From a virus (lineage: Duplodnaviria > Caudoviricetes), in the IMG/VR virus record IMGVR_UViG_2687453780_000005, positions 1 to 64,000 of that record: a stretch of DNA of 64,000 nt; one strand, written 5' to 3'. Under the pieces are notes generated by a model. It was not told the DNA's origin. It searched no databases and saw only the letters and a program-made list of their open reading frames with translations. A program made the position numbers and the translations under genes. Of the stretch, positions 2,986 to 26,281 are shown in pieces. Each line of letters begins with the position of its first letter. Positions within the stretch are counted from its first letter, which is position 1.

Positions 2986-3918
2986 ATGGATATGTTTGAT
3001 GAAAAAGGTATCAAACCTATGCTAATATCAGAAAGAGTTGATCCGTATGACGATGTGGATTCTATCTTTGAGCTTAAATTTGACGGAATCAGATGTATTG
3101 CATATATAGATGATCAATCTACTGATTTAAGGAATAAACGGAATATGATGTTATTGCCAAGATTCCCGGAATTAGAACTATTACATGAGGGCTGCAAACA
3201 GAAATGCATACTTGACGGAGAGTTAATCGTATTAGTCAATGGGAAGCCAGATTTTTACGAAGTCCAAAGAAGGACGGTCTTAACTGATCCCTTTAAGATA
3301 GAACTAGCGTATAAAAAACACCCAGCCGGTTTTGTGGCTTATGATATACTTTACTATAAAGACAAACCCGTAACTGATTTGCCGCTGATGGAGCGCAAAA
3401 AGTTGTTGGACGAAGTAATATCAGAAAGCGATATTTTGTCAAAATCTCGATACATTGAAACTGATGGAATAGCAATGTACAAATTCGCGGAAGATTTCAA
3501 CTTGGAGGGTGTCGTTGGAAAAAAGAAATCAAGCCTATATTGGTTTGGGAAAAAGTCAAAAGAATGGAAGAAAATTAAAGTACTCAAAGAAGAAGATTTT
3601 ATATGCATAGGTTATATGTTCAATAAAAACAGCATGACTACCCTGATACTAGCGAAGTATGATGACAAGAATAAACTAATTATTACGAACCATGTTTCTC
3701 TCGGAGTAAGTATCGCTAAGCTTAAACAACATGGCATGAAAATTTCCGATTGCCCCATAGATAGTTTAACCGGATATGCCGATGCAACATGGATTGAGCC
3801 AATGGTATGTACTATTGAATATATGCCTTCTGAGAAAGAAGGAATACGCCAACCGACATTCAAAAGTGTGCGAGTCGACAAATTGCCTGAAAAATGTAGA
3901 TTACACAATACACATTGA
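2986..3918 (+). CDS. ATP-dependent DNA ligase (minimal LigD/LigB-type)
   Basis: Adenylation motif ELKFDGIR, plus ILDGEL, YDIL and EGVVGK. Confidence 0.9.
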   Translation: MDMFDEKGIKPMLISERVDPYDDVDSIFELKFDGIRCIAYIDDQSTDLRNKRNMMLLPRFPELELLHEGCKQKCILDGELIVLVNGKPDFYEVQRRTVLTDPFKIELAYKKHPAGFVAYDILYYKDKPVTDLPLMERKKLLDEVISESDILSKSRYIETDGIAMYKFAEDFNLEGVVGKKKSSLYWFGKKSKEWKKIKVLKEEDFICIGYMFNKNSMTTLILAKYDDKNKLIITNHVSLGVSIAKLKQHGMKISDCPIDSLTGYADATWIEPMVCTIEYMPSEKEGIRQPTFKSVRVDKLPEKCRLHNTH

Positions 3919-4001
3919 TTTATAATAAAACTCAGATTTGCTTAAAATATGGGAGCTAAAATGCTTCTATATTTTTTAACAACGAAAAGAACATATGTAC
4001 G

Positions 4002-4193
4002 ATAAATAGCAATTTAACTAATAAAGCTGATAAAAGCGCTTTGGTTGACAAAAACCAGTTTATGTATGCGTATAATGCCGCTGACTGGAAAGTTTTATTA
4101 GGCTTGGAAAATGGCTGGTTATTTGTGCGGATCGTAAATATTAATACAGGTGTCAACGTCTATAATGGTAAAGTACAACTCACATCATTTTAA
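4002..4193 (+). other. Silent tail fibre C-terminal cassette A (63 codons, no start)
   Basis: Open frame INSNL-TNKADKSALVDKNQFMYAY...KVQLTSF* beginning at the TAAATAGCAATTTA site. Confidence 0.8.
4003..4016 (+). repeat. Shufflon crossover site 1, TAAATAGCAATTTA
   Basis: Identical 14-mer occurs at 4003(+), 4540(-), 6275(+) and 6871(-). Confidence 0.88.
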
Positions 4194-4204
4194 ATGATCA
4201 TTTA
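4191..4204. repeat. Palindromic cassette-junction site TAAATGATCATTTA
   Basis: Lies between convergent cassettes A and B and contains both stop codons. Second copy at 6619. Confidence 0.75.
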
Positions 4205-4554
4205 AGCCTGGTAACAAACAGCCAACCTTCGGCATACAGTGTCGTACCATTAAAGTGCCTTGTCTGCAATACAACATTTTTACTGCTTTCAGATATCTTA
4301 ATTATGCACGAATGTGTAAATGCTTGAAATCCGGCTGCAAGTACTAATGATGCTGATCCGCGACCGTCCAACTCATCTCCAACTTTTAAATATCGGTCAA
4401 CTCGTGATGTTGTGGTCAAAGTTAATCTAATACTGGAGTTGACAATGTAAGTCCCTGGTGGCAACCAAATATTGGTTACTGACGTTATAGAATCTGTTGG
4501 CACGTTTATTGTTCCAGTAGCCATATCATATTCATAACCTAAATTGCTATTTAG
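4198..4554 (-). other. Silent tail fibre C-terminal cassette B
   Basis: ORF 4198..4524 extends in frame to LNSNL-GYEYDMATG at site 2. Confidence 0.82.
4540..4553 (-). repeat. Shufflon crossover site 2
   Basis: Reverse complement of TAAATAGCAATTTA. Confidence 0.88.
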
Positions 4555-4598
4555 TGAATATCAATCAAATGAAATAAAAAATGAAAGGAGGTGTAGCA

Positions 4599-5627
4599 AT
4601 GTGCTCATCCATTACATCCAGTGTTATTGATAGTATAATGATAGAACTATCCGAAAATAACATAATAACAGCCGATAAGCTTTCAGATACTAAAATGATT
4701 TTAGAAATATGCCTTTTAAAATATAATATTTCAGAAATTGAACAAAAAAATGAGATTTCCACTGACGTAGATAGGACACAATTTTATTTACAACAATTTT
4801 TATTAAACATGAAATTACGAGGCTGTACTGCTGGAAGTATTAAGAGTTACAATAATGAATTAAAAAATTTTTTGTTATACATAAATAAACAAATTAATGA
4901 TATCACTTATCATGATATACAAAATTTTTTGGCTTATGGAAAAATACACAAAAAATGGGCAGATAGAACATACAATATAAAATTAATTATAATCCGCTCT
5001 TTCTTTGCGTTTTTGTATGAAGAAGACTATATAAAAACTAATCCTGGGAAAAAACTTCATGAAACCAAGGTTGAACATAAAATTGGAATAATAGTAACCC
5101 CATATCAAAGGGAAGAAATAAAATGTGCTTGCAAAAATGAAAGAGAACAGGCAATGTGCGAAATGCTATATAGCACCGGTGCTAGAATAAGCGAGTTGTG
5201 TGCCTTGAATATACATGATATAAATTTTCATAACATGTCTGCGATTGTATATGGTAAGGGCAGAAAAGAAAGAGAGATATATTTTAACGCACCAACCAAA
5301 TTACATCTTGAAAAATATTTGGATTCAAGGTCAGATAATAATCCGGCTTTATTTGTGATATCTAAAAAACCATATACAAGACTGACTCCATCTTCAGTTA
5401 GAGCTATGCTAAAAAGAATAAAACAAAGAGATGACAATATTGCGAATATTAAATTAACACCACATGTATTCCGAAGAACGGTAGGTACTGATATGATAAA
5501 TAAAGGCGCCCCTTTGGAAATTGTTGCAGAAAAATTAGGCCATATAAAACTAGATACCACAAGACAGTGCTACGCTTCAATTAGCAGAAATACCGTACAT
5601 CAAGCAAACAATAAGTACATTGGATAA
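4599..5627 (+). CDS. Tyrosine recombinase, predicted shufflon invertase
   Basis: TGARISE, PHVFRR, LGH and Tyr (RQCY) catalytic set; SAM-like N-domain; AAGGAGGTG RBS before ATG 4599; sits among the cassettes. Confidence 0.9.
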   Translation: MCSSITSSVIDSIMIELSENNIITADKLSDTKMILEICLLKYNISEIEQKNEISTDVDRTQFYLQQFLLNMKLRGCTAGSIKSYNNELKNFLLYINKQINDITYHDIQNFLAYGKIHKKWADRTYNIKLIIIRSFFAFLYEEDYIKTNPGKKLHETKVEHKIGIIVTPYQREEIKCACKNEREQAMCEMLYSTGARISELCALNIHDINFHNMSAIVYGKGRKEREIYFNAPTKLHLEKYLDSRSDNNPALFVISKKPYTRLTPSSVRAMLKRIKQRDDNIANIKLTPHVFRRTVGTDMINKGAPLEIVAEKLGHIKLDTTRQCYASISRNTVHQANNKYIG

Positions 5628-5671
5628 CAGAGGGAAACAATTAAAAATATCGCCCCCTCTGCTTGTTGTAT

Positions 5672-5791
5672 TTATGGTATTAGAATATTATTCTTTTCAT
5701 TTTCAGTAATCCATTTCTTAGAAACTGCATTTTCGAGTAACGTTTCAGATAATTTACCAGATTTAAATAACCACAATAACATTTCAAACAT
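5672..5791 (-). CDS. XkdX-like small tail fibre-associated protein (39 aa, not in ORF track)
   Basis: MFEMLLWLFKSGKLSETLLENAVSKKWITENEKNNILIP; the AVxKxWITxxE pattern is XkdX-like. Confidence 0.7.
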   Translation of the reverse strand: MFEMLLWLFKSGKLSETLLENAVSKKWITENEKNNILIP

Positions 5792-5792
5792 A

Positions 5793-6200
5793 TCATTTTC
5801 CCTCCAATTCATTTAGTATTAAAGTACCAAGACTTTCTTTCATAGCCGCATTTTCCTTTTCTAAAGCAATAATTCTCTCATTTAAATCGGGTAGTTTAAA
5901 CTCTCCAATTGCGACATCTGTTTTAATTTCTGTTATTCCATCCTCATCTGTTGCTACAACATATTCTTCAATGCTGTTTAACCTCCCAGCATATATTAAA
6001 TCAGATCTTATCCAATCCGTTTTTCCAGAAAGTCCAATTTGAGAAATTTCTCCATTTGCTTTTATAATGGTTTTAATTTCATTAAGAGATAATGTCCCCA
6101 TCTGAAAAGCAATTTTCCCTCCATTGTCGGACAAATCAACTCCTCCTACAACTAAGTCAAATTCAGCATTTCCAAATTTAATTTTTTCAATTTTATTCAT
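5793..6200 (-). CDS. Putative tail fibre assembly protein (XkdW position)
   Basis: 135 aa with a C-terminal coiled coil, directly upstream of the XkdX-like gene. Confidence 0.55.
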   Translation of the reverse strand: MNKIEKIKFGNAEFDLVVGGVDLSDNGGKIAFQMGTLSLNEIKTIIKANGEISQIGLSGKTDWIRSDLIYAGRLNSIEEYVVATDEDGITEIKTDVAIGEFKLPDLNERIIALEKENAAMKESLGTLILNELEGK

Positions 6201-6273
6201 AAATTCATTCCTTTCTTTTTTAAAATAAAAATAAGTCCGTATATGGGACTAGTTTGCGAGCAAGCTTAGTTAT

Positions 6274-6609
6274 CTAAATAGCAATTTAGCTAATAGACTT
6301 ATTTATGTTAGTGGGTTTTCCACTGTACCTGCAGCCAATATTAGGGTTGCGGTTGGTCAGATATCTGTAACTGTACCAGCTAATGCGGAAAACTTCGTGA
6401 TTAATGCTTCATCATTAACCGCAGGTGGATTGACTAACGGCGAAAATATAATTGGAATTAGCTGGTATTCCACGGATCTTACTAGCATCTTTCCAATCGG
6501 ATTTAGGTTGTCTTCGTCTAACCAAGTTGCTGTATATTTAAATAAAACGTCGACTGCTGAATTTACTTTAAATCTAAGGTATGTAACCTATTACTTTAAA
6601 TCTTCTTAG
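6274..6609 (+). other. Silent tail fibre C-terminal cassette C
   Basis: Frame LNSNL-ANRLIYVSGFSTVPAANIRVAVG... is continuous with ORF 6397..6609. Confidence 0.82.
6275..6288 (+). repeat. Shufflon crossover site 3
   Basis: TAAATAGCAATTTA. Confidence 0.88.
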
Positions 6610-6618
6610 TGTATATTT

Positions 6619-6632
6619 TAAATGATCATTTT
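6619..6632. repeat. Second cassette-junction site TAAATGATCATTTT
   Basis: Lies between convergent cassettes C and D. Confidence 0.72.
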
Positions 6633-7449
6633 AACTTGCTATATAAAAAACAGTACCCTCAACGTACGCATTCTTAGCGACTCCATCGCCATTTATTAGC
6701 TCACAGTGTAATCCCCACTTACCACTCTGTGAATGATATGTTTCTGTAGTAATGGCTGTAGTAGCTGATTTCACAGACACTATATGATTTCCAGTATACG
6801 GTAAATCCAGTAAAACATTGCCACTCGCATCTGTAGTGCCTGAATAATTAATTTTTTTAAATAACGAGTTTAAATTGCTATTTAGATCGGTAATGGATTG
6901 TTTAAGATTGTACGCTAATGCTGCACTGGCCGCTTTAGTTGTAATGTTTTCAAACTGGTTTGATATCATCGCCTTCAATAAAGCATTTTCATCTAAATCC
7001 ATGGTTGTTGCAATACTTTTAGAGATTTTTCCTAGTATGATCGACCATGCTTCGTTGGCTATCAAGTTTGCCAGCTTTGTAGCTTGCTGAAAATTAGTAT
7101 CTACATTCATTTTTCCGTCTGAACCAACTTTTGTCCCATCGCCCGATGTAGTAATACCAAATTCAGTTTGAGTGGCCTTCTTTGCACTAATTGTTCCGAT
7201 TTCATTAATTTTAATAGATATATTATCAGGTTTTACTACACCAGGACTATCCTCAGTAGCAACGCCACCACCCTGTGCTGACAATTGATAATAATTTGTA
7301 TTTGTTGGTAATGTTCCAATTGGAGGTAGAGTATGTACAAGATAACTACTCCCATTATAAGATACGACTCTGCCAACCTTATATTGTTTTGTATCAACCC
7401 ATTCTCCATCTGGTATTATTGCTATTGTTCCATAATTTTTTGTTGCCAT
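6631..7449 (-). CDS. Tail fibre/receptor-binding protein with switchable C-terminus (cassette D, 6631-6885, currently fused)
   Basis: Last tail-module gene; WxxxxxYxxGxxVxYNG repeat and ATxxxxGVVK fibre motifs; contains LNSNL encoded by site 4. Confidence 0.82.
   Translation of the reverse strand: MATKNYGTIAIIPDGEWVDTKQYKVGRVVSYNGSSYLVHTLPPIGTLPTNTNYYQLSAQGGGVATEDSPGVVKPDNISIKINEIGTISAKKATQTEFGITTSGDGTKVGSDGKMNVDTNFQQATKLANLIANEAWSIILGKISKSIATTMDLDENALLKAMISNQFENITTKAASAALAYNLKQSITDLNSNLNSLFKKINYSGTTDASGNVLLDLPYTGNHIVSVKSATTAITTETYHSQSGKWGLHCELINGDGVAKNAYVEGTVFYIAS
6871..6884 (-). repeat. Shufflon crossover site 4 (inside the fibre gene)
   Basis: Reverse complement of TAAATAGCAATTTA, in the LNSNL frame. 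Confidence 0.88.
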
Positions 7450-14582: not shown

Positions 14583-17500
14583 TTAGCGCTGTTTAGACAT
14601 TTCCATCATTTTCTGTGGTATTTCTTTATCAATCAAGACATCAAGTCTTGCGTTTATTTGTGTTAGTACTTTTTCATCTGCATTACCCTCTACCACCATT
14701 AGTGGTGAATTCATTTGAATAGTTACCGGTTCAGATCTTCCAACATTCTTAAGTGAGTCAAGGTTATACTTAGGAACATTAATATTAATGGCGCCAATAC
14801 TTTTCTTGAATGACTCAAACAACTCTGGGTTATGAGCGAACTCCCATAGCCTTTTTGTGGACTCATTATCAAAAATAGTATCTCCACCTACTGAATTGAG
14901 AACAGATCCGTTTTTAGCAACAATCAATTCTGGCCCATTTTCATTAACGTATTTTAATCCTGGCCTAGAATTAGTAGTACCACTTTTATATCCAACAGTG
15001 ATGCTTCTCTTTTTAACATCATCATATGATATAGTTTTTCCGTCCCATACACCACTGTTATCAACATAATAATACCCATTGCCATCTTTCGTTTTGATAG
15101 CCATGTCTGTAGCCATAGTACCATCAGATTTCAGATAGTAGTCTTTACCATCTTTAGACTTTCTCCATGCAGATTTAACCATCTGACCATTCTCAGGCTC
15201 AAAATATCTCCACTGACCTGAACTTTCATCCCAGCCAGTTTTCATATAACCATCTTCATTGAAGTTATACTGTTTACCTCCAATGGTGTAGATGCCGTCA
15301 GAAGCATAATCATCATTAGAAGCGCCATACCACCAGCCTTTAGAGTTCTTTTGCCACGTTCCAGAACCGGTAATATCATCAAATGAAGCTGTATTATTAC
15401 CATTAGCAGAAAATCCTTGCATAGTACTTACCAATTCTGTGAGCCTTGACAAGTCAATATTTGCGATATCAATATTAATCTGTGAAATAGCATCTGATAC
15501 AGCGTCTTTAAATGTGGACACGGCGCTATTAGCTGACTCCCACGGAGAAGTTAGTTCGCTAGTCATGGTAACGTTATAATCGGTTCCATACTTAGTCAGG
15601 GTATTGTAGACTGTTTTGTAGTTATCTTTTACCTGTCCGAGATATTCTTCAATTACTTTCTTTTGTGCATCAGTGCTTGACTTAAGCTCATCTAATTCTT
15701 TTTTCTTTGCGTCCTGATAGTCCTCTGCCTGCTTATCTAGGCTTTCAAGAGTTTTATCATAAGCATAGTCAGCTTGTGTCTTGGATAAATCTTTCTTAGC
15801 ATCGGATAATTGCTGTTCCAACTGCAATCTCTGTGCAATATCCTTCCTGTCGGTAGATAGTGACAGTTCATCAATTTTTGCCTGTAAATTATTAATGTCA
15901 GTCTGTTTCTCGCTAATACTTTCAAGATAATCCTGATAGTCCTTTTCGGTCTGTAATGCTTTCTTCTTGGCAGCAATTAAATTATTCATATCATCTATCT
16001 GTGCCTGGATTGCATTATACCTAAACTGCAAGATAGCTTGTTCAGCTTCTTTCGTAGCTTTTACTGCCGATAATTGTGCATTGGTATATTCATTGAGTTT
16101 TTCGTTATATTCGGCCTGTGTGAGCGAACCGTTTTCATACATCTCATTAATAGCGTTAATGGCCTCTTCGTAATCGGCGGCTTGCTGTTTTGCATTAGCA
16201 TACTGTTGTCCTAATAGTGCAATTTTAGTGAGACCCTTAGATGTGAGCATTCCTCCATCTAAAAGTCCATCGTCACCAATTAGATCAGACATGGTGCTAA
16301 TTCCACTATTAATTCTATCAAGCCCACTAGAAATCCTCTCTAGTTCCTCAAATGGCAAATTGATTAGAGCTTTTCTAAAATCGTTCATTGAAGATACGGC
16401 ATCATTCATAGAGGAATTTACAGTAATTAACTCTTCATTATATTTTCTCCACTCCTCAGAACCTACTTTAATAGTTCCTTTACTTACTGCTTTTGACAAT
16501 TCAATGGATAGAGAATTATACTTACTCTGCAATTGCTTATAAATTGCTTCCTGTTGATTTATCAGCTGTTTATAATCCGCTTTAGTAATGGATTCTCCTA
16601 ATTCCTTTTGTAGATTCAGAAGATTGTTACTATATGAAGCGTACTTATTCATGAGCGAAACAAGACTATCAAAATCATTGATAATATTATCAAGCTTGGT
16701 CTGAGCAAGTTCTTTCATAGCCTTTTTTGTTTCATCTATCTTCTTACGAACTTCTTCGGCCTTATCGTACCACTCCTGATAGCCTTTGACATTCTTCGCA
16801 ATTACCTCATCTGTAATGGTTTCAATTTCAAGAGTACCATTTTTAATCTTATCTATGTAGGTGGGAGAGAGATCGTAAGTTTTCGCTTTATTCTGGTAAG
16901 TATCCATCTGCGATTGTAATGCAGTAAGTTTATTTGCCATCTCGTCAATGGCTGTATCTGTGAAAGTATTTTTAGGCTTCCAATTCGATGTGTCAGAAAT
17001 TTTATCTTGGATATTTTGTACCTTTTCGTCTACTCGCTTAATGGTAGTTTCTACCCAGTCGAATACCTCTGAAAAATCTTTTTTATCCTTTTTAGAGCCA
17101 GACGATTTATTTGCTTTTACACCATTATACGATGCGTTAACGCTTGCTCCCTTGCCTTTATATTCGGAAGCAGCCTTTATTGCATCTTCAGCTTCTTTTT
17201 CTGCATTTCTTACAAGAGCTTCATAACCTTCTTTTCCGCCTATATTGCCGCCAACACTACCTCCGGCCTTTAAGGTATTTAATGCTTGCAGTGCTGTGTT
17301 AGCACTACCAATTACTCCAACAAGAGAGATGATATTCTCAATGTCTCCACTGGTATCTAACGCGTTACCATTGAAAAACTCTTTTTCTAATACCAGTCCA
17401 GCCAGTGCAACTTTAGCTATGTCACTTTGAGTTGCTTCATCAATAATTCCTGGTATCTCACTAGCCGTAGCATTGGCAAGATCATTACTTACTTCTGCCG

Positions 17501-19394
17501 TATAAGCCTTTTGTGCTGCAAGGTGTTCCTGTGCCGCTGAAAGTCGAGACATTACAACTTCTTCAGCGTTAGCGACACCCATATTCTGAAGCATAGCAAT
17601 AGCAAGATTAGCATTTTCATTTGTAAGTCCGTTTAGCACACCAGTACTATTGATCCATGTAGTAACCAATTCGTCAAATGCACTTTGAGTAGCATTTAAA
17701 TCCTTGGGGGATGACGAAACCTTTTCGATGAAGTTTGCGTATGATTCGCCTAAATCATCAAAGTTATCCTTGAATTTCTTGTCGTCAAGCAGAGCATAGT
17801 CAAATGGATTATCTTTGTCAGATATGCTCTTCATGATTTTATCAAGGGATTCAAAACCTTCTGATAGAGAGTTGATGTTAGTGATTACTTCTTGTTTGGA
17901 GAGAGGGGGGAATGCTATTTCGCCAAATTTGCCAACATCACCTTGTACAATTTTCAATCTTTCAAGAACTGCAATGACATCTTCTGCACTTAATCCATAT
18001 TCATCGGCTGCTTCTCTTAGTTTCTCGAAGTTTTCATTATCCCCGGCATCGCTTATAGCAAGAATATCTTCTTTAGATATACCACTTAATGTTTTTGCAA
18101 AATTCATTAATCCATCTTTATTTGACTTTAATGAATCTTCAAAATCGTATAAGTCGGTATCAGCCTGATCAAATACATCTGTAACAACAGACGCATAATC
18201 TTTCCAATCTGTACTTGTAAGGTCAATTGAATTTTTAACTTTATTTAAATTATCTCTTGCCGAAAGAATTTTAGTCTCATCACCGGAAGCTAATGCGTCA
18301 TTATACTTTTGTACTGCACCTTTGACTTCTTCAAAACTCCGCGAGAGTTTATCATTTATAGTTATTTCAGCTTCTAATGCCGAATTGTACTTAACACCAA
18401 ATTCGTCAATTTTATCTTTTGCATTATTTAACGAGGTACTTGAAAATCCAAGCACCGATCCAATATCATAGTCGTCGTTACCAAAGTCTTCTTGTAATGA
18501 AGTCACTTGATTCATGAAGTCTGTTATGGAATCGTATGCTTCTGTAGGGTTTGCTTTGATTCTTACGGTAAAAGTTCCAGTTGATTCATTTGCATCAACA
18601 TCAAGGCCCATCTGTTTAGCTAAATTAAGAATATTGCTGCCGGATTCAGAATACATGCCAACGTCCATTGCAACCATATATGTCTTCTTAGAAGTCATTT
18701 GGGTCTTGGCATCTTCAATTCCTTTTCTATTCTCATTTAAAAACTTCTGTGCCACGGCTTTGTTCATAGCCAGAATAGCTTCTGTCTGATCTTTATATGC
18801 ATCGGTAACGAGATTTAGCTTGCCATATTCTTCTCCATATTTATCATTTAATTCTTTCTGTAAAGAGAGAAGGTCGCTTTTTATTTCGTGCTGACGCTCT
18901 TCTGTAGTGTTTGCATTAGTTAATTCTTTATGTAATTCCTTATATTTATCTGCATATTCTTCAATAGTAGTGGAAGTATCACTGAATACAGATGCGGCTT
19001 CAGATGTGGATTTCCTCATTTGATCTACTGAATGTTTGTACATATTCCATGCAGTCAGTCCAGCGGTAATAGCGGCACCCACTAATAATATTGGATTTGC
19101 CAACATTGTTGACCAAAGCCCCTTTAGCGCTGTGCCAAATCCTGTGGTGGTTGCTGTGGCAGTGGTTTGTGTGGCAGATAGGGTGGAGGTGGAGTTTTTT
19201 ATCAGTACAACATCAGATACCTGTGCCTTCATTTCCTTGCTTAAGTTGGAAGATGCAATTTTTGCAACCTTTTGAGTTTCTGATAAATGATCAAATTCAT
19301 CTGATAGTCTACTAAGTATTTCGGCACTATCTAAACTCTTTAATTTATTTATTTCATCATACAAACCATAAAGATTTCCGAGGTCTTTAAGTTG
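14583..19394 (-). CDS. Tape measure protein exon 2 (1603 codons) with C-terminal cell-wall-binding repeats
   Basis: Long helical ORF upstream of Dit. No SD before the ATG at 19397, whose G is the predicted intron omega-G. Confidence 0.85.
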   Translation of the reverse strand, partial: QLKDLGNLYGLYDEINKLKSLDSAEILSRLSDEFDHLSETQKVAKIASSNLSKEMKAQVSDVVLIKNSTSTLSATQTTATATTTGFGTALKGLWSTMLANPILLVGAAITAGLTAWNMYKHSVDQMRKSTSEAASVFSDTSTTIEEYADKYKELHKELTNANTTEERQHEIKSDLLSLQKELNDKYGEEYGKLNLVTDAYKDQTEAILAMNKAVAQKFLNENRKGIEDAKTQMTSKKTYMVAMDVGMYSESGSNILNLAKQMGLDVDANESTGTFTVRIKANPTEAYDSITDFMNQVTSLQEDFGNDDYDIGSVLGFSSTSLNNAKDKIDEFGVKYNSALEAEITINDKLSRSFEEVKGAVQKYNDALASGDETKILSARDNLNKVKNSIDLTSTDWKDYASVVTDVFDQADTDLYDFEDSLKSNKDGLMNFAKTLSGISKEDILAISDAGDNENFEKLREAADEYGLSAEDVIAVLERLKIVQGDVGKFGEIAFPPLSKQEVITNINSLSEGFESLDKIMKSISDKDNPFDYALLDDKKFKDNFDDLGESYANFIEKVSSSPKDLNATQSAFDELVTTWINSTGVLNGLTNENANLAIAMLQNMGVANAEEVVMSRLSAAQEHLAAQKAYTAEVSNDLANATASEIPGIIDEATQSDIAKVALAGLVLEKEFFNGNALDTSGDIENIISLVGVIGSANTALQALNTLKAGGSVGGNIGGKEGYEALVRNAEKEAEDAIKAASEYKGKGASVNASYNGVKANKSSGSKKDKKDFSEVFDWVETTIKRVDEKVQNIQDKISDTSNWKPKNTFTDTAIDEMANKLTALQSQMDTYQNKAKTYDLSPTYIDKIKNGTLEIETITDEVIAKNVKGYQEWYDKAEEVRKKIDETKKAMKELAQTKLDNIINDFDSLVSLMNKYASYSNNLLNLQKELGESITKADYKQLINQQEAIYKQLQSKYNSLSIELSKAVSKGTIKVGSEEWRKYNEELITVNSSMNDAVSSMNDFRKALINLPFEELERISSGLDRINSGISTMSDLIGDDGLLDGGMLTSKGLTKIALLGQQYANAKQQAADYEEAINAINEMYENGSLTQAEYNEKLNEYTNAQLSAVKATKEAEQAILQFRYNAIQAQIDDMNNLIAAKKKALQTEKDYQDYLESISEKQTDINNLQAKIDELSLSTDRKDIAQRLQLEQQLSDAKKDLSKTQADYAYDKTLESLDKQAEDYQDAKKKELDELKSSTDAQKKVIEEYLGQVKDNYKTVYNTLTKYGTDYNVTMTSELTSPWESANSAVSTFKDAVSDAISQINIDIANIDLSRLTELVSTMQGFSANGNNTASFDDITGSGTWQKNSKGWWYGASNDDYASDGIYTIGGKQYNFNEDGYMKTGWDESSGQWRYFEPENGQMVKSAWRKSKDGKDYYLKSDGTMATDMAIKTKDGNGYYYVDNSGVWDGKTISYDDVKKRSITVGYKSGTTNSRPGLKYVNENGPELIVAKNGSVLNSVGGDTIFDNESTKRLWEFAHNPELFESFKKSIGAININVPKYNLDSLKNVGRSEPVTIQMNSPLMVVEGNADEKVLTQINARLDVLIDKEIPQKMMEMSKQR

Positions 19395-19466
19395 CATAAT
19401 TATTGATATTAAAATATTTGTATGATAATATAATAAAAAAGAAGTAGAGATCCAAGGGGGTAAAAT

Positions 19467-19919
19467 ATGTTAATTAAGTGTCCAGAGTGTGGAAAAGACA
19501 TTTCAGATAAATCTCAAAGCTGTATTCATTGTGGTTATCCTTTAAATGAATCTATAGTCCATCAAAATACCTGTATCATTAACGGAACAAGTTATGACTT
19601 AACCGAAGAATTAAATGATTTAACTAACGATCTATTAGTTGTTGCTATCAAGAAAATCAGACAAAAAAGTCTTATAAGTTTAGGTGACGCAAATAATCTA
19701 TGTAAAATTATTCGCGAAACAAAACAAGTACCACCGACATTTAATAGCACAAGTGAGGTAGTCCAACAAAATGTTCCGCGCTGTCCATACTGTAGCTCCA
19801 CTGACTTAAAGAAAATATCTGGTTTCTCAAAGGCAGGAAGCGTTGCGCTCTTTGGAATCTTTTCTGTTGGCAAAGTAAGCAAACAGTGGCATTGCAATAG
19901 TTGTAAAAGTGATTTTTGA
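19467..19919 (+). CDS. Double zinc-ribbon protein (intron cargo, antisense)
   Basis: CPEC...CIHCG N-terminus, CPYC...CNSC C-terminus, central AIKKIR segment resembling the L7/L12 CTD. Confidence 0.8.
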   Translation: MLIKCPECGKDISDKSQSCIHCGYPLNESIVHQNTCIINGTSYDLTEELNDLTNDLLVVAIKKIRQKSLISLGDANNLCKIIRETKQVPPTFNSTSEVVQQNVPRCPYCSSTDLKKISGFSKAGSVALFGIFSVGKVSKQWHCNSCKSDF

Positions 19920-19924
19920 GTATT

Positions 19925-19955
19925 AAAAAGAGTAGGAGATTATTCCTACTCTTTT
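19925..19955. terminator. Bidirectional terminator
   Basis: AAAAGAGTAGGA-gattat-TCCTACTCTTTT. Confidence 0.75.
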
Positions 19956-19967
19956 ATTTGAGTCAAA

Positions 19968-19979
19968 GAACTTATGTTC
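19968..19979. promoter_or_regulatory. LexA box
   Basis: Perfect GAAC-TTAT-GTTC. Confidence 0.6.
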
Positions 19980-20055
19980 CGACTACCAATATATGGAAAA
20001 TAATGGTAATATTATTTTAAGCAAACCTACGCATGACTTGAACGGAAAGGATTTG

Positions 20056-20151
20056 TTGTTGACAGAGTTTTTCTCTTTCGTGTCTGCCGTTGCCGATGTA
20101 ATTGCACTATTTTACATTATCATAGACCACCACAATCATATAAAGCAGTAA
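20056..20151 (+). CDS. Small hydrophobic peptide (31 aa), type I toxin-like
   Basis: GGAAAGGA RBS, TTG start, MLTEFFSFVSAVADVIALFYIIIDHHNHIKQ. Confidence 0.45.
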   Translation: MLTEFFSFVSAVADVIALFYIIIDHHNHIKQ

Positions 20152-20352
20152 TATAATGAAACATCGTGAGCCTAACGAAAACTGGTATACCCGTAGGATT
20201 ATCAGTCTTGTTCAGAATAATGTTCTTGTCTGGTATTGATGTGACGAACAGGTTTGCGGTTGCCATTATTATTTGTAGAAGTTGTTGGTGTGAATACTGC
20301 ATAAGACAGTCGATTTCCAGTCCACACTAGTTTTAACTGATTTGCGATTATT

Positions 20353-20380
20353 GGGATAGTGAGTTTTATATCACTATCCC
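20353..20380. terminator. Stem-loop between convergent units
   Basis: GGGATAGTGA-N8-TCACTATCCC, perfect 10-bp stem. Confidence 0.65.
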
Positions 20381-20390
20381 GTTTCAATTA

Positions 20391-20564
20391 CTACGACATA
20401 TCCACGCTCATCTCATAAGCCTGACAGATATTACCGCCATAATCATACTCTGACAATTTATTCTTAACTATATCAACTTCATCGTGCCTATAGTTTTTCT
20501 CGAATATTACCTCTGATTTAAATGGATCAAGATGAATCACTATTGCCTTTATGTATTTTCTCAT
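20391..20564 (-). CDS. Small protein (57 aa) coupled to the antirepressor
   Basis: TGATG stop/start overlap; MRKYIKAIVIHLDPFKSEV... Confidence 0.65.
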   Translation of the reverse strand: MRKYIKAIVIHLDPFKSEVIFEKNYRHDEVDIVKNKLSEYDYGGNICQAYEMSVDMS

Positions 20565-21376
20565 CATGCTACCTCCAACTCTTGAATTTTGGATAGAAGA
20601 GTAGTGGCATCGAACTTGTCCAACACATTCTTTTTCTGCATCAGATTATATATGTAATTTAAGCCCTTTGGACTTACCATGGTTACGCTTGAAACATGTC
20701 CATTTTCTGACTTTGAAGTAATAACCTTGAACATTCCATTATTTATAAACTTACCATATGGAATGTTAAAATTACTCTGCTTAGTTAGTACCTTGCATCT
20801 ACGTAGGAATTCAAACAGTTTATTACGTCCAATTTCTACCATTGCCGCTACATCAATGAATTGCAAGTACCCTTGTGCAGTCATTAAATCAACATAAGCC
20901 TTTGCCTGTGGCTCTAACTGTTCAATCTGTTCCTTGTACTTCTGATTCTGATTAAGTAAATCTTTTACCATCGACAGTTTAGTGTCTTCGTTGAATGATG
21001 GAAAATATCTGTCAATAAATTCTGACTCTCTTCCAGTCTCTACAGCCCCACCAGTAGTACGGATTTGTTTGAGATACTTCTTGATTGCTTTCTTCAACGG
21101 TTTGGCGATTTCCTTTTTTGAATACATACAAGCATCGTATAACCCATCTTCATTTAAAACAATGGATTTCTGATTCCCACCAGGGGTACACACTAACTGT
21201 GTATCCTTGTATTCTTCGTCAACCTTTCTTGCAACCGTATACCCATCACGTTCTCCAAGCCATTCAGCCACGTCACCTGCTACAAACCATGGCGATTCGA
21301 TGCTACCGTACATCTTAATTTTCTTACTAAGAATCTCAGTCTCTTGGATAACTGTTAATACCTGCTCATTACTCAT
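20564..21376 (-). CDS. Phage antirepressor (BRO-N plus KilA-C)
   Basis: PWFVAGDVA, TPGGNQ, LNEDGLY; C-terminal IGRNKLFEFLR and VSPKGLNYI. Confidence 0.88.
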   Translation of the reverse strand: MSNEQVLTVIQETEILSKKIKMYGSIESPWFVAGDVAEWLGERDGYTVARKVDEEYKDTQLVCTPGGNQKSIVLNEDGLYDACMYSKKEIAKPLKKAIKKYLKQIRTTGGAVETGRESEFIDRYFPSFNEDTKLSMVKDLLNQNQKYKEQIEQLEPQAKAYVDLMTAQGYLQFIDVAAMVEIGRNKLFEFLRRCKVLTKQSNFNIPYGKFINNGMFKVITSKSENGHVSSVTMVSPKGLNYIYNLMQKKNVLDKFDATTLLSKIQELEVA

Positions 21377-21436
21377 AATGAACCTCCTTCTGAAAAATAT
21401 GTTGATTGATTCAAAAGAAGTGTGTTATAATACCTT

Positions 21437-21510
21437 ACGTATAGTTGGTGTATAACACACCTCTCAATAACCGCCTTAGACCGTCCAAAGTTGAGGTGGT
21501 TATTTTTATT
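21437..21510 (+). ncRNA. Putative antisense RNA to the antirepressor leader
   Basis: TTGATT-18-TATAAT (21402-21431), no ORF, ends at the hairpin and T-run at 21466-21510. Confidence 0.55.
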
Positions 21511-21576
21511 GATACATTGACTTTTGTACTATAATGATATATATTATTCATAGAGCAAAATTTGTATCATGAGTGT

Positions 21577-21605
21577 ATTATAATCTATAGTTCTAAGCGT
21601 GTCAA
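21577..21605 (-). promoter_or_regulatory. Consensus sigma-A promoter of the antirepressor
   Basis: TTGACA-17-TATAAT, flanked by CAAAATTTG at 21556 and 21608. Confidence 0.75.
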
Positions 21606-21648
21606 TACAAAATTTGCATTATAAGTAAAAAAAGGAGGTAAGTGCAAA

Positions 21649-22251
21649 ATGAATAATGAGGTCATGGTAAACTCAATAAAGTTACTGTGTAAAAATAACA
21701 ATATATCTGCTAGTCAGTTAGAAAAAGATGTAGGTCTGAGCCAAGGATTAATTAGTAAATGGCAGAAAACTATGCCATCTCTAGATAAAATCATTGACAT
21801 CGCCAACTATTTTAATGTCTCAATTGATGATGTTGTTGGTAGAAATAAAAAACAGGAAGAGTTAATACAAACTTTATTACAACTTACAATTGATAAAGTT
21901 GTTAACTGGAAAGATGATGATATAGAAAGATCTCCATTGGATAATATTGAAGATTTATTTTCAATATGTTATGAAGAAAATGAAATCTACTATGCTAAAT
22001 ATGAAGATGGATATTTCTATCTCTTTACACAATACGAAACCGATTTTGGAATTATGGAAAACAAAGAACTACAATTATATATACAGCCAGATATAAATAG
22101 TAATCCTGTGTTACAAACGGATAGTTATGATGAGCTAAAGGATCTCTGGCTAATTGTAAGAGAAAGTACGCGTGGGTTGCCAGATGAATATAAAGCTGAG
22201 AAGCTAAAAAATAGTTTTTTGAGTAAATACAAAAATAAACTAAAAAAATAA
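21649..22251 (+). CDS. XRE-family HTH regulator with C-terminal extension
   Basis: SQLEKDVGLSQGLISKWQKTMPSLDKIIDIANYFNVSIDDVVG. Confidence 0.85.
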   Translation: MNNEVMVNSIKLLCKNNNISASQLEKDVGLSQGLISKWQKTMPSLDKIIDIANYFNVSIDDVVGRNKKQEELIQTLLQLTIDKVVNWKDDDIERSPLDNIEDLFSICYEENEIYYAKYEDGYFYLFTQYETDFGIMENKELQLYIQPDINSNPVLQTDSYDELKDLWLIVRESTRGLPDEYKAEKLKNSFLSKYKNKLKK

Positions 22252-22373
22252 ATAAACGATTATTAAAAAAGAGCCGACTATCTAACATAGTTGGCTCTAA
22301 ACTTTGTTATATTAATATAATAAAACCCATTCAATTAAAGAATAGGTTCTCAAATACTGATGAAAAAAGGTAA

Positions 22374-22453
22374 GTTATTTAGCCGGGTGGCACTCCGGTC
22401 ATCTCTTTAAGACCCATAGGGCGTGATAGCTGCCTGTTCTATCCTTAAATAAC
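22374..22453 (-). ncRNA. Structured RNA unit 2 downstream of the PBECR nuclease
   Basis: 8-bp closing stem, three hairpins, GAGAUGA linker, loop-loop GGCA/UGCC. Confidence 0.65.
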
Positions 22454-22475
22454 CACCTATCTTAATATAGAAAAA

Positions 22476-22566
22476 GCATAATTATTTTGGATGGGCGGTG
22501 TATCCATCATCTCAGGTACTCTTGCGAGTGCGTCGGGAACCATTTCCGACCTCAAAATAATTATGC
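22476..22566 (-). ncRNA. Structured RNA unit 1 downstream of the PBECR nuclease
   Basis: 14-bp perfect closing stem, three hairpins, GAGAUGA linker, loop-loop UGGU/ACCG. Confidence 0.68.
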
Positions 22567-22602
22567 CTGCTACTATTGTATTAATGTTACACATATAATA
22601 TA

Positions 22603-23025
22603 CTACGAATTTTCATCATTGTCAATAGAAACGTTTCTAATTCTACCGCTATGCAAACGTCTTTCAATCTTTGATTCCTGTATATCATGGACAGTTGAAA
22701 CGTATAAATAATTCCCCTCAATATCTAATTTTATCCCAATCATAATATTGTCTTTATAGCGTTTAATAATCTCTATTGATGTTTGGCTTTCATTTGGATT
22801 CACTCCAACATAATCCGGGTTTTCTATTATATCAGGAATAAAATCAATATATTTTAAAGACTTATAATGCTTACGCTTTACCATGTGAGCAGGTAAGCCC
22901 TTAGATCTGTATATATTCAATGATTCAAGTTGTATATTTAAAAGATCATTGTATTTAGAATTATATTCTCCCACTTTTAGTAATTCTTCTTTTTCATTTT
23001 CTCCCACACCCATTACCCCTGTCAA
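22603..23025 (-). CDS. PBECR-like (Barnase/EndoU/colicin E5-D/RelE fold) nuclease
   Basis: HMVKRKH, IPDIIENPDYVG and YLYVSTVH patterns, recognised by eye. Exact start uncertain. Confidence 0.68.
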   Translation of the reverse strand: MTGVMGVGENEKEELLKVGEYNSKYNDLLNIQLESLNIYRSKGLPAHMVKRKHYKSLKYIDFIPDIIENPDYVGVNPNESQTSIEIIKRYKDNIMIGIKLDIEGNYLYVSTVHDIQESKIERRLHSGRIRNVSIDNDENS

Positions 23026-23070
23026 TTATTATGGATTAATTATATAACATAATTTTCCATATTTCTACAA

Positions 23071-23082
23071 GAACGTAGGTTC
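23071..23082. promoter_or_regulatory. LexA box upstream of the nuclease promoter
   Basis: aaGAAC-GTAG-GTTCtt. Confidence 0.6.
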
Positions 23083-23148
23083 TTACAAAGGGGTGTTTTA
23101 CATCTTGAACGCATAAATATTTCCTTTTTTTAGTATATCTATTTGATA

Positions 23149-23632
23149 CATACTTGTTAATATCCAACGTCTTTGAAACGCTGATATTATATATACTTTA
23201 GAACATGCATTAACAGCACACAAAATCAGGCTTTTGCATACTGTGAGGAATGGTGCTCGTTGAACATTCCCTATCCTTTATGACTTTATCCCGACATTGC
23301 TTTCGCAATTGCTACCATCGGATTATATGCCACGACATAGCGTAGATAGGGTTAGCTGCTTCGTTGGTGATTGTACTTCTGTCGGGAATTATTTTTTATC
23401 CCTAGAAATCTCACTCCGGTGTATAAACCGTTTGACTTATTTGCCTTATTTTTCGGCTTCTTCTAAAATAGAAGAGTAGTGAGCGTTACACTTTCAAGCA
23501 ATTAATCCTCTTTTTATTTTAAAACTTTCGTCTCTAGGAATTGTATATACCGCCATTATGGTATTTTCTTCCCCTAGATAGCCCAACTAAATCCCTCGGA
23601 AAGATTTAAGTGTAACTCTTATTTCAGAGTCA
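23149..23632 (-). ncRNA. Group I intron ribozyme core (P1-P9)
   Basis: P3 GAGGA/UCCUC, P4 UGCUU/AAGCA, P6a CCCUAUC/GAUAGGG, J6/7-P7 GUUCAACGAGCA with UGUUCU, and a 13-bp P8, all in canonical order. Confidence 0.85.
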
Positions 23633-25189
23633 AGCGAAGTTTTTTACGAATGATGCAATACCTGCACCAGACACAAGTGTTGGCAAAATGCCAAAGTTTC
23701 GAATTAATTCAGTAAATACATTGTTTAATGTTGTTCCAGATTCTATAAGTACTTTTAAGAAGTTGGAATTTACAACAGTATTAGATAATGTCTGGAATGA
23801 AGCATTTAGTTGCTGTAATTTCGCATCTAAACTCTCAGCCCATCGATCTTGCTCTTGTTGAGCAGATCCATCTGCATTCATTGCTGCACTTAAAGCTTTT
23901 TGAATTTGTCCAGATTGGAAAGCCGTAAGAATGGCAGCACCTTGATTTGCCCTCTGTTTCCCAAACATGAGTTCTAAGAGCGTAGATTTATCTAAATCGT
24001 TTACATCTTTCCATGCTTTTGAAACTTCCTCTAAAATTTGGTAAGTACTTTTTAGTTTACCATTCTGTTCATCAAGAATATTTACTTGGCCTTTGGTGAG
24101 GTTGTAAATTTGAGTCTGGTTTTTACTTACACTATTAATATCCTCATAGGCTTCACCAATTTCTTCAAGTTTACCTTTCATGGAAGCCAATCGAAGAGAA
24201 GCGACCTTGAGCATATTTCCTAGCTCCCCAACTTCTTGAGTGATCTCCCCGCCACCAGTAAGCATAGCCACCGTCTGTTCAAGGGTATTCCCCTGTAAAG
24301 CTAACGCAGAAGCTGAGTTTTTAACACCTTCTCCGATACCTTTTGAGGTTACAGCGAACTCATTACCTAATTTATTGTAAATGTCTATCAGTTTAATACT
24401 ATCTGAGGTTTGAAGATTAAAACCCTTAAGCGCGGTGACCATGTCAGAGACAGCAGTGTCATCATCGACCTCTCCAACGTTGGAGTAAATAGACGAGATT
24501 TTGGCTAAGTTAGCGCTTTGGTCAATTGAATATCCTAATTTGGCCCAGTTTGCCGTTTGTTCAACTAAACTAGATACAGATCTTCCCAATGTTTGCGCAT
24601 CTTTATTCGCATTAGTAAGAAAACTTCTATATTTTGATTCTGTTTCATCTGTAACCTTATAAAGGTTTGTCATAGCAGTATTAATTTCTATGACATTCTT
24701 TGGCATTTGCCTCAGAAGTTGTACAACGGTAGCAATACTTCCCGTAACCAACGCCCACTCTCCAAATTTCTGGCCGGCGGCAGCGAATGTGTCACCTATA
24801 CTTTTACCAGTCACTCCTAAAGCGTCTGCTTCGGCTTTTACACCTCTGAACCGTTTTTGTAGATTACCGAAATCTGATTTATTATCGATTTCTTTCAGTT
24901 TGATAAGTAATTCATCAAGCGTACCACCAAATTCTTTTTCGGCGGCTGAGTTAACTCTACGCCACGCTTGTATCTGATTAGTAAAAGTAATTTTGTCAAT
25001 TTCTTTTAAACCATCTCTAGCCTTAAATATTTGGTTGGCATATTTTTTAGCGGTTTTGTCATCAAGTTCCACGTCGAATTTAAGTTTATATTGTTCTTTT
25101 ACCTGTGCAATTAATTTTGGTAATTGCTCATTCTTCAATTTCGATGAGTCAATCATAGTTTGAAGAATGAGAGAAATATTGTCGGCCAT
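23633..25189 (-). CDS. Tape measure protein exon 1 (519 codons)
   Basis: TP901-type tape measure core (INTAMTNLYKVTD...LGNEFAV). The apparent TGA is the first 3 nt of the intron. Confidence 0.88.
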
Positions 25190-25300: not shown

Positions 25301-26281
25301 TTAGATATTATATTTATCTTTTGCTTCCCTTAATTTCTTTTTATCTTGACGAAGATAAAATTTCTTAGTTACATCAAGCCCCGAATGGTTCAATAGTTCA
25401 CTTATTTGTTCTATTGGGCAGCCCGCAAGTTTGAGGAGCTGACTACCTGAATGCCTAAAATCATGCGGATGCAATGTTGGTACATTTATCATTAATCCGA
25501 TTTTCTTTGCCCACTCAGTCAGCGTAGTTGTGTTTATTGGCTGAAGTTTCCCTCCATAATTTGAGTAAAATATCCAACCTCCATCTATGATATCATTGGC
25601 TTCACGATATTCTTTTAACTCAGATAGGAGAGTGGCAACCTCTTCGTTAAAGTACAATGTTACAATTTTACCTTCTTTTTCAAGAACGTCATTACATGTT
25701 CTTTCCTCAAAATCTACTTGATCCCAACGAATACTAGATACAGCGGTGACTCTAGCCATAGTAGACAGAGAAAACAGTGCATACAATTGAAGTTCTCTGC
25801 AATTCAACTTCTCTGTATCCTTATATTCCTGTAATTTATCTCTCATTAAGGAAACTTGATCTTGTGTTAAGAAAGTTTGTACGGCTATATCGGTGTCCTT
25901 TTGTGGTCTATCAATAAAATCCATCGGATTTTCTGAGATAACTTTTTTCTTTCTAAGAAATTTATAGAAAGCTGAGATAGAAGACATACGCCTTTTCATT
26001 CTACGAGAATTATTTCCTTCGGTCTTACAATAATAAAAGAACTCTGTAAGATCATCTTCATCTAATTCAGTAATGCATTGGTTTCCTTGATTATCGTATA
26101 TGTAAATAAACCAATGACTTAAATCATTATCGTATCCTTTCATGGTCTTTTCCGATAATTCTCGTAGCTCCATATCCATCTTATACTTTTTATATAATTT
26201 CTTTGTTTCGGTGTTGACATTTTTTAACTTTTCCTCATTAAAAAAATGTATACGTTTACTGCGCTCTGCCATACAAATCAC
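25301..26281 (-). CDS. Tyrosine recombinase (XerC/D family; SPbeta YomM position)
   Basis: STMARV, HPHDFRH, LLNH and KKFY; located just upstream of the tape measure gene. Confidence 0.88.
   Translation of the reverse strand: MICMAERSKRIHFFNEEKLKNVNTETKKLYKKYKMDMELRELSEKTMKGYDNDLSHWFIYIYDNQGNQCITELDEDDLTEFFYYCKTEGNNSRRMKRRMSSISAFYKFLRKKKVISENPMDFIDRPQKDTDIAVQTFLTQDQVSLMRDKLQEYKDTEKLNCRELQLYALFSLSTMARVTAVSSIRWDQVDFEERTCNDVLEKEGKIVTLYFNEEVATLLSELKEYREANDIIDGGWIFYSNYGGKLQPINTTTLTEWAKKIGLMINVPTLHPHDFRHSGSQLLKLAGCPIEQISELLNHSGLDVTKKFYLRQDKKKLREAKDKYNI

Follow-up and report, generated by a model that had tools for sequence, protein, structure and literature searches.

A 64,000-nt stretch of Caudoviricetes prophage DNA (the window; positions 1 to 64,000 of IMG/VR record IMGVR_UViG_2687453780_000005) carries a tail-fibre locus built around four copies of one short site. 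Coordinates are positions in this window unless a genome label precedes them, as in G000, the genome carrying this prophage. The site, which we call X, is a 14-mer with arms around an asymmetric AGCA core, is read as NSNL, and lies at 4003-4016 (+; X1), 4540-4553 (-; X2), 6275-6288 (+; X3) and 6871-6884 (-; X4). Four exact copies in alternating orientation had been claimed in an earlier, sequence-only reading, and the claim holds: about 0.0004 copies per 3.6 kb would be expected from the local composition, and the 5.93-Mb genome contains just one additional exact 14-mer. X3 and X4 form a 17-bp perfect inverted repeat.

Each copy of X opens a frame of its own. The four NSNL frames are real and stop-free, encoding 62, 117, 110 and 83 aa (63, 118, 111 and 84 in the earlier count, which included the preceding codon), and they make up two convergent pairs of cassettes: C1 (4005..4193, +) with C2 (4198..4551, -), and C3 (6277..6609, +) with C4 (6631..6882, -). 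That one cassette is fused to the fibre gene and three are detached is likewise correct. Only X4, at codon 190 of the fibre or receptor-binding gene (6631..7449, -; 272 aa), has an open frame before it, namely the constant 189-aa fibre N-terminus, and C4 is the tip currently expressed. The frames at X1-X3 lack a Met and are closed by an in-frame stop 3-15 codons before the site, and C1, C2 and C3 are silent. Simulated crossovers at X give in-frame fibres of 272, 299, 251 and 306 aa.

The two cassettes of each pair meet at a second site, G, which was absent from the earlier finding. G1 (4191..4204), at the C1/C2 junction, has the arms of X around a palindromic GATC core; G2 (6619..6632), at the C3/C4 junction, has one outer mismatch. 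The TAA stop of C1 is the first codon of G1, and the TGA stop of C2 lies inside it. A resemblance between the arms and dif sites was weighed but dropped, since the polarity differs.

Between the two cassette pairs, where a tyrosine recombinase had been placed, a 342-aa protein is encoded at 4599..5627 (+), with an ATG behind a Shine-Dalgarno sequence in a frame that opens at 4581. It matches PF00589 (E 1.6e-30) as well as SAM domains, and all of its catalytic residues are kept (R202, K226, H295, R298, H321, Y331). Profile matches cover the SAM and catalytic domains only, with no match to an arm-binding domain and no assignment for the first ~60 aa. The protein is distinct from the probable integrase of the prophage; that enzyme is encoded by a 464-codon frame of its own, next to the tRNA att site and 115 kb from the shufflon recombinase. 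Its named homologues come from Lachnospiraceae, and the host is probably Lacrimispora of that family. Single-protein scans of the genome and of viral contigs gave no result, and the isolated phages with the best recombinase matches (29-35%) have no such locus in their annotation, their sequences not having been scanned for sites. Recombinases 62-69% identical (L058-L066, L248-L260) have no cassettes nearby in the viewed loci, which indicates that this recombinase subfamily is not exclusive to shufflons.

The sequence-only reading saw here a tyrosine-recombinase shufflon that exchanges the C-terminal tip of a fibre, and homologues of the gene agree with it. Their fibre N-termini are conserved as far as an [NS]S[ND]L motif located at the site, and what follows it is unrelated. 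Silent cassettes are found fused to unrelated N-termini elsewhere: C2 occurs full length at 74-81% identity, joined at NSNL to three unrelated N-termini, one of them collagen-like, and a 79% homologue of C3 is fused to an unrelated 39-aa N-terminus. C3 also has a near-identical copy in another phage, L326. In P0088/L326 the C4 tip is carried by a different N-terminus, and the homology begins at X. C1 is seen elsewhere only as another detached copy. The original observation is confirmed and its interpretation partly supported; the comparative support is strong, and the locus is real and probably active.

The gene itself is the last large gene of the tail module and has weak CBM_5_12 and tail-fibre matches. 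Its N-terminus has a CBM5/12-like start and a helix running into the crossover site, and the protein falls in a fibre-repeat cluster of the Atlas (0.90). The full-length model is poor (pLDDT 54); compared with the PDB it gave no match at E below 0.001, the best being a cyanophage tail fibre at E 0.002. C2 is modelled as a TNF/C1q-type jelly roll (pLDDT 80) that matches the BC2L-C lectin, the PLTL lectin (Z 11.4), the CBD of the cyanophage A-1(L) short fibre (Z 10.6) and the BclA CTD. Trimeric lectins and fibre heads thus share this fold, although a shared fold alone is no proof of binding. Structure neighbours of C4 in the Atlas are mostly viral (best TM 0.79). Of 74 cassettes, few have a family match, with one match each to an H-type lectin, a tail fibre and a tail protein. 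The tips may alter host range.

Alternative arrangements in related phages, which the sequence-only reading had proposed as a check, are seen, and the relatives are rearranged at X. The closest recombinases (71-89% identity) share this layout and sit between X-G-X pairs or next to them, and most of their cassettes are different. Two phage loci, L245 and L246, share 99.94% identity over the X2-X3 interval, and at both sites the homology ends. In genome G066 an X-G-X unit forms its own 605-bp contig with X at both ends. Ten contigs that share one 60%-identical recombinase have the same segments on either side in both orientations, with two core types used independently, and a group with a 55%-identical recombinase is likewise rearranged. 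The X cores differ among recombinase lineages. One relative (L038-L047) has two asymmetric cores, GGCA and ACGG, in series, with only degenerate G-like sequence at its convergent junctions; in this two-tier shufflon, two successive fibre domains are shuffled independently.

Of 49 genomes of the genus, 23 contain exact X-cassette-G units, against 0 in the reversed control, and our cassette catalogue holds 94 slots in 77 clusters. Because the catalogue was selected for having G, the frequency of G within it is no test; the positions of stops and of homology ends are. The 12-mer of G is exact in 75 of the 94 cassettes, and outside ~14 bp conservation falls to ~0.3-0.45. G supplies the stop codon in 63 of 89 intact cassettes, and a stop lies within 5 nt in 80 of them. 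For 10 cassette families (70-90% identity), homology reaches to within 0-5 nt of G and then drops to 4-11 matches in 30, with unrelated partners; in several of these families the cassette is fused in one phage but stored in another. The loss of homology at G also holds for the window's own C1, which has an 86% homologue in genome G011 that covers exactly 4003-4205, and the DNA differs past G. A cassette stored at position 1 in L245 occupies position 4 in L246 with another partner, matching 30/30 through G, and the L246 contig ends in a 30-mer that starts at the first base of G, as expected from a branch there. The distance from X to G is variable (190-340 bp), and the GATC core of G is constant where the X core is AGTG, GCTG or GCTA. 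The exact X...G pattern was found in none of 399 other genera of the family, a result that reflects the AGCA core only, as other cores exist; two flank-plus-site patterns had no match in viral contigs.

We somewhat favour reading the locus as a receptor-binding-protein shufflon with two site classes, whose tips are also exchanged as cassettes bounded by X and G from a genus-wide pool. The adjacent recombinase, which is presumed to cut X here, would invert DNA between opposed X sites and so bring any of the four tips in frame onto the constant N-terminus. That inversion at X switches the expressed tip is very probable. X3 x X4 would be the simple switch, and the left pair would serve as a reserve. 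Reaching it would take either two successive inversions or a double exchange in which the segment with the recombinase and the xkd-like genes keeps its orientation. Under the usual matching-core rule of tyrosine recombinases, X would recombine with X only and G with G only, and each tip would thereby be a module bounded by two sites that cannot stand in for each other.

The symmetric core of G would permit the tail-to-tail joining of any two tips, with stops on both strands. Because joining any two cassettes in this way needs a symmetric core, G may well be a second crossover class, an assignment that we make with modest confidence. Cleavage of G, and the enzyme that would perform it, we infer. 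An occasional G x G crossover would re-pair tips, and a double exchange at X and G could move single tips between positions, or between co-resident or co-infecting phages, with gene order undisturbed. Replacement of single tips in this manner would explain why some prophages store pairs 7-20 kb from the fibre gene with apparently unchanged gene order.

Several observations weigh against this two-site reading, and some of them belong to rival accounts. The fibre assignment is of moderate strength, drawn from position plus weak matches, and just one of five C2 models is confident. The re-pairing between L245 and L246 is read from ~16 nt of cassette past G. Cassettes at least 96% identical in different prophages retain their partner (C3-G2-C4 of the window with L326; L334 with L345), a duplicated pair in L028 retains its partner too, and homology runs ~26 bp beyond G in L001 and in L001/L029. 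The retention of partners by near-identical copies implies that recent transfer often carries the whole pair, with G crossover at most the slower event; pairs appear to move together on short time scales and to be re-paired at G on longer ones.

One rival account is a plain inversion shufflon of the Rin type. G would then be an accessory site that is bound but never cleaved, or else a two-way stop under selection, and tips would be re-paired near it through illegitimate or phage-annealase recombination, with G as a short linker. Inversions at X alone reach all four tips, pairs are intact in recent transfers, two duplicates run past G, and TnpI of Tn4430 is a tyrosine recombinase that binds accessory repeats. 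However, this account has to contend with the base-precise loss of homology at G in 10 families, with a stop role that needs only 3 of the 12 conserved bases, and with the full core-type symmetry of a site at variable distance from X. One relative moreover uses two cores as independent crossovers, and re-pairing is seen in L245/L246. We regard a plain shufflon as possible but unlikely.

The acting enzyme is a further point of difficulty. Many two-cassette loci have no close recombinase homologue nearby or in the genome, so that the acting enzyme is not always the neighbour, and the prophage encodes two other tyrosine recombinases. If the shufflon recombinase were a bystander, a host enzyme or another prophage enzyme would act on X and G in trans, in keeping with the many X-G-X pairs that have no adjacent recombinase, with some pair-bearing genomes that have no close homologue, and with close homologues that have no cassettes (for example L255 and L058). 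The 71-89% homologues positioned between or beside X-G-X pairs in the same layout do not fit a bystander, nor do X cores that vary by recombinase lineage, and we consider this account improbable.

It is also conceivable that the locus is a frozen relic in this strain, formerly active and now no longer switching. The sole sequencing run, 3.6 Mb of contigs too shallow for minor forms and in that respect uninformative, contains no alternative junction, and cassettes in a second four-cassette locus of the same genome are frameshifted. Yet the locus studied here has four perfect sites, four open frames and an intact enzyme, and C3-C4 is 99.6% identical to a copy in another phage, which makes a relic very improbable. 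A loose end of the run at 3998 was considered as a shufflon junction and rejected: the left flank occurs a second time in the chromosome (L348), and the loose end matches that copy.

The second four-cassette locus (L001; G000:C2:2607099-2609079) has a 31%-identical recombinase, an AGTG X core and the same G sites. Four other genomes carry orthologues of this locus, in which the enzymes are 99% identical and the cassettes largely differ. In L001, L028, L029 and L030, AGCA-core sites are nested 21-48 nt after the AGTG-core sites at cassette starts, and from their sequence these cassettes look as if they had come from the other lineage with the old site attached. Another prophage of G000 (L002; G000:C2:1156572-1157137) has a two-cassette X-G-X pair on its fibre gene and no adjacent recombinase; this pair is a candidate trans substrate and exchange partner. 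In L028 (genome G023) one cassette pair is duplicated on both flanks of the recombinase in direct orientation, which suggests intermolecular exchange. The prophages of L353-L358 (genomes G031 and G072) have three or four X-cassette pairs over ~30-40 kb, one only at the fibre gene, together with a distant 28-32% identical recombinase that is split in genome G072.

Two small genes share the recombinase segment. The sequence-only reading had called xkdW- and xkdX-like genes here. The XkdX-like gene (5672..5812, -) matches Pfam at E 0.029, below the cut-off, and PHROG 134 at E 5e-4; the gene at the same position in L327 matches PF09693. The 135-aa gene at the XkdW position (5793..6200, -) has no family match. 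It is co-oriented with the fibre gene, and its homologues come after the fibre-cassette pair in L002, L326 and L327.

The same reading proposed a long inversion, X1 x X4, that would flip the recombinase together with the xkd-like genes. It is geometrically possible, but the flipped state appears in 0 of 21 comparable loci from three lineages. The orientation of the recombinase segment relative to its flanks is constant in 6/6 of the closest loci, 5/5 orthologous loci of a second family and 10/10 of the 60%-identical group; three of the six closest-locus contigs show the left flank only, and the 21 loci are kin rather than independent. Cassettes do cross the recombinase segment, though its orientation holds. 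A flipped recombinase in L028/L029 was considered and rejected once the loci were oriented by their flanks. The flipped state is transient or selected against, and evidently not stable, perhaps because the xkd-like genes would leave the late transcript, which is plausible.

The left edge of the locus may connect it to the SOS response. A possible SOS-type promoter (3976..4003, +; -35 at 3976, -10 at 3998-4003) faces the recombinase across the first cassette pair and holds a LexA-like box at 3989-4000 (+), both being consensus matches only; promoter-like matches overall are not above those in shuffled sequence. The LexA-like box stands directly before X1 in 6/6 four-cassette loci. Because the box abuts X1 in all of these loci, and because the gap between X2 and the start of the recombinase is only ~45 bp, SOS-linked expression of the recombinase is plausible. 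The prophage has its own lexA (1402-1992; TIGR00498), in a module with LexA-like boxes at window positions 1349, 2397 and 3989 and a ligase gene at 2986-3918. In relatives the module also includes a Y-family polymerase, SRAP and Ku, which this copy does not have. The end of the module recurs at G000:C1:1253322, where there is no shufflon.

The prophage as a whole is 115 kb long and is bounded by copies of a tRNA att repeat, one at window ~786 and the other 115 kb from it. The shufflon locus is at its tail end, with terminase, portal, tape measure and minor tail genes upstream and the lexA/ligase module downstream. The two further tyrosine recombinases of the prophage are encoded at 25301-26281 (-) and at G000:C2:3305015, and one adjoins the tape measure gene. 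The latter (14583-25189) is apparently in two open reading frames, split by ~4.2 kb that hold an antirepressor.

Inversions of fibre genes are a known and enriched class (PMC9881135). As precedents the sequence-only reading had named R64 Rci and the Gin and Cin systems; the closest precedent is instead the Rin shufflon of Bifidobacterium breve and B. longum prophages (Mavrich et al. 2018, PMC6109161) and Eggerthella lenta prophages (PMC8778435). By layout and function the two have much in common: a prophage tail locus, a constant N-terminus of a receptor-binding protein, several start-less and dissimilar C-termini of ~100 aa that each follow a short repeated site, and a tyrosine recombinase that is separate from the integrase and has no arm-binding domain. 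Rin has a single asymmetric site type of 8-11 bp, tandem cassettes and a flanking recombinase, whereas the present locus has a site with a short core flanked by inverted arms, cassettes paired strictly tail to tail, an internal recombinase accompanied by two fibre-accessory genes, and a palindromic-core site closing every cassette. An invertible locus without an adjacent recombinase is also known from the Rin work (PMC6109161).

The R64 shufflon resembles ours in its tyrosine recombinase, Rci, in the in-frame swap of an adhesin C-terminus and in convergent open reading frame pairs within invertible segments, in the parts of PMC11852207 drawn on here. Those parts place it in a plasmid pilus gene (pilV), with 31-bp sfx sites in which a 7-bp core and asymmetric 12-bp arms suppress deletion, and describe no second site class at the ends of the reading frames. 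The locus described here has a phage context and a 14-bp site with inverted arms. Gin of Mu, Cin of P1 and Min of p15B also switch host range by exchange of a fibre C-terminus (as cited in PMC6109161), but they are serine invertases, with an unrelated enzyme and unrelated sites. Neither this locus nor a second class of site at the ends of cassettes turned up in a literature search, which covered few subscription journals.

Integrons offer a looser comparison, and the locus is not one of them. The recombinase scores 70 bits against TIGR02249, for which the cut-off is 265, and the cassette ends are a fixed 12-14 bp palindrome. Integrons draw on a large shared cassette pool and their integrases are linked to LexA, but they use folded single-strand attC sites and move whole genes. 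In engineered systems, recombinase-mediated cassette exchange with heterospecific lox or FRT places a module between two sites that have the same arms and different cores. In our locus the units are protein domains fused in frame, and a LexA link is possible; both comparisons are analogies only.

Swapping spare fibre tips by DNA inversion is already known, and the two-site architecture with cassette re-pairing is the added part. It is tempting to extend it to a natural system of two-site cassette exchange for protein domains, to which we would give even chances. One recombinase family would use a lineage-specific X to switch the tip and a conserved G to re-pair and trade tips among prophages, drawing on a genus-wide library (77 clusters in 94 slots) that would also be fed from pairs stored tens of kb from the fibre gene and would possibly be under SOS control.

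Beyond the locus itself, the sites bear on the question that Rin leaves open, of how a tyrosine recombinase without an arm-binding domain inverts DNA without deleting it, and they are very short sites with naturally orthogonal cores. Known shufflons account for switching among stored tips, not for the renewal of the stock. In the present system the turnover of tips far outpaces that of the enzyme and of the neighbouring genes, and its breakpoints fall at two defined sites, which suggests a dedicated route by which new receptor-binding domains are acquired. The catalogue of ~77 tip families is in turn a resource for finding the cell-surface receptors of Lachnospiraceae.

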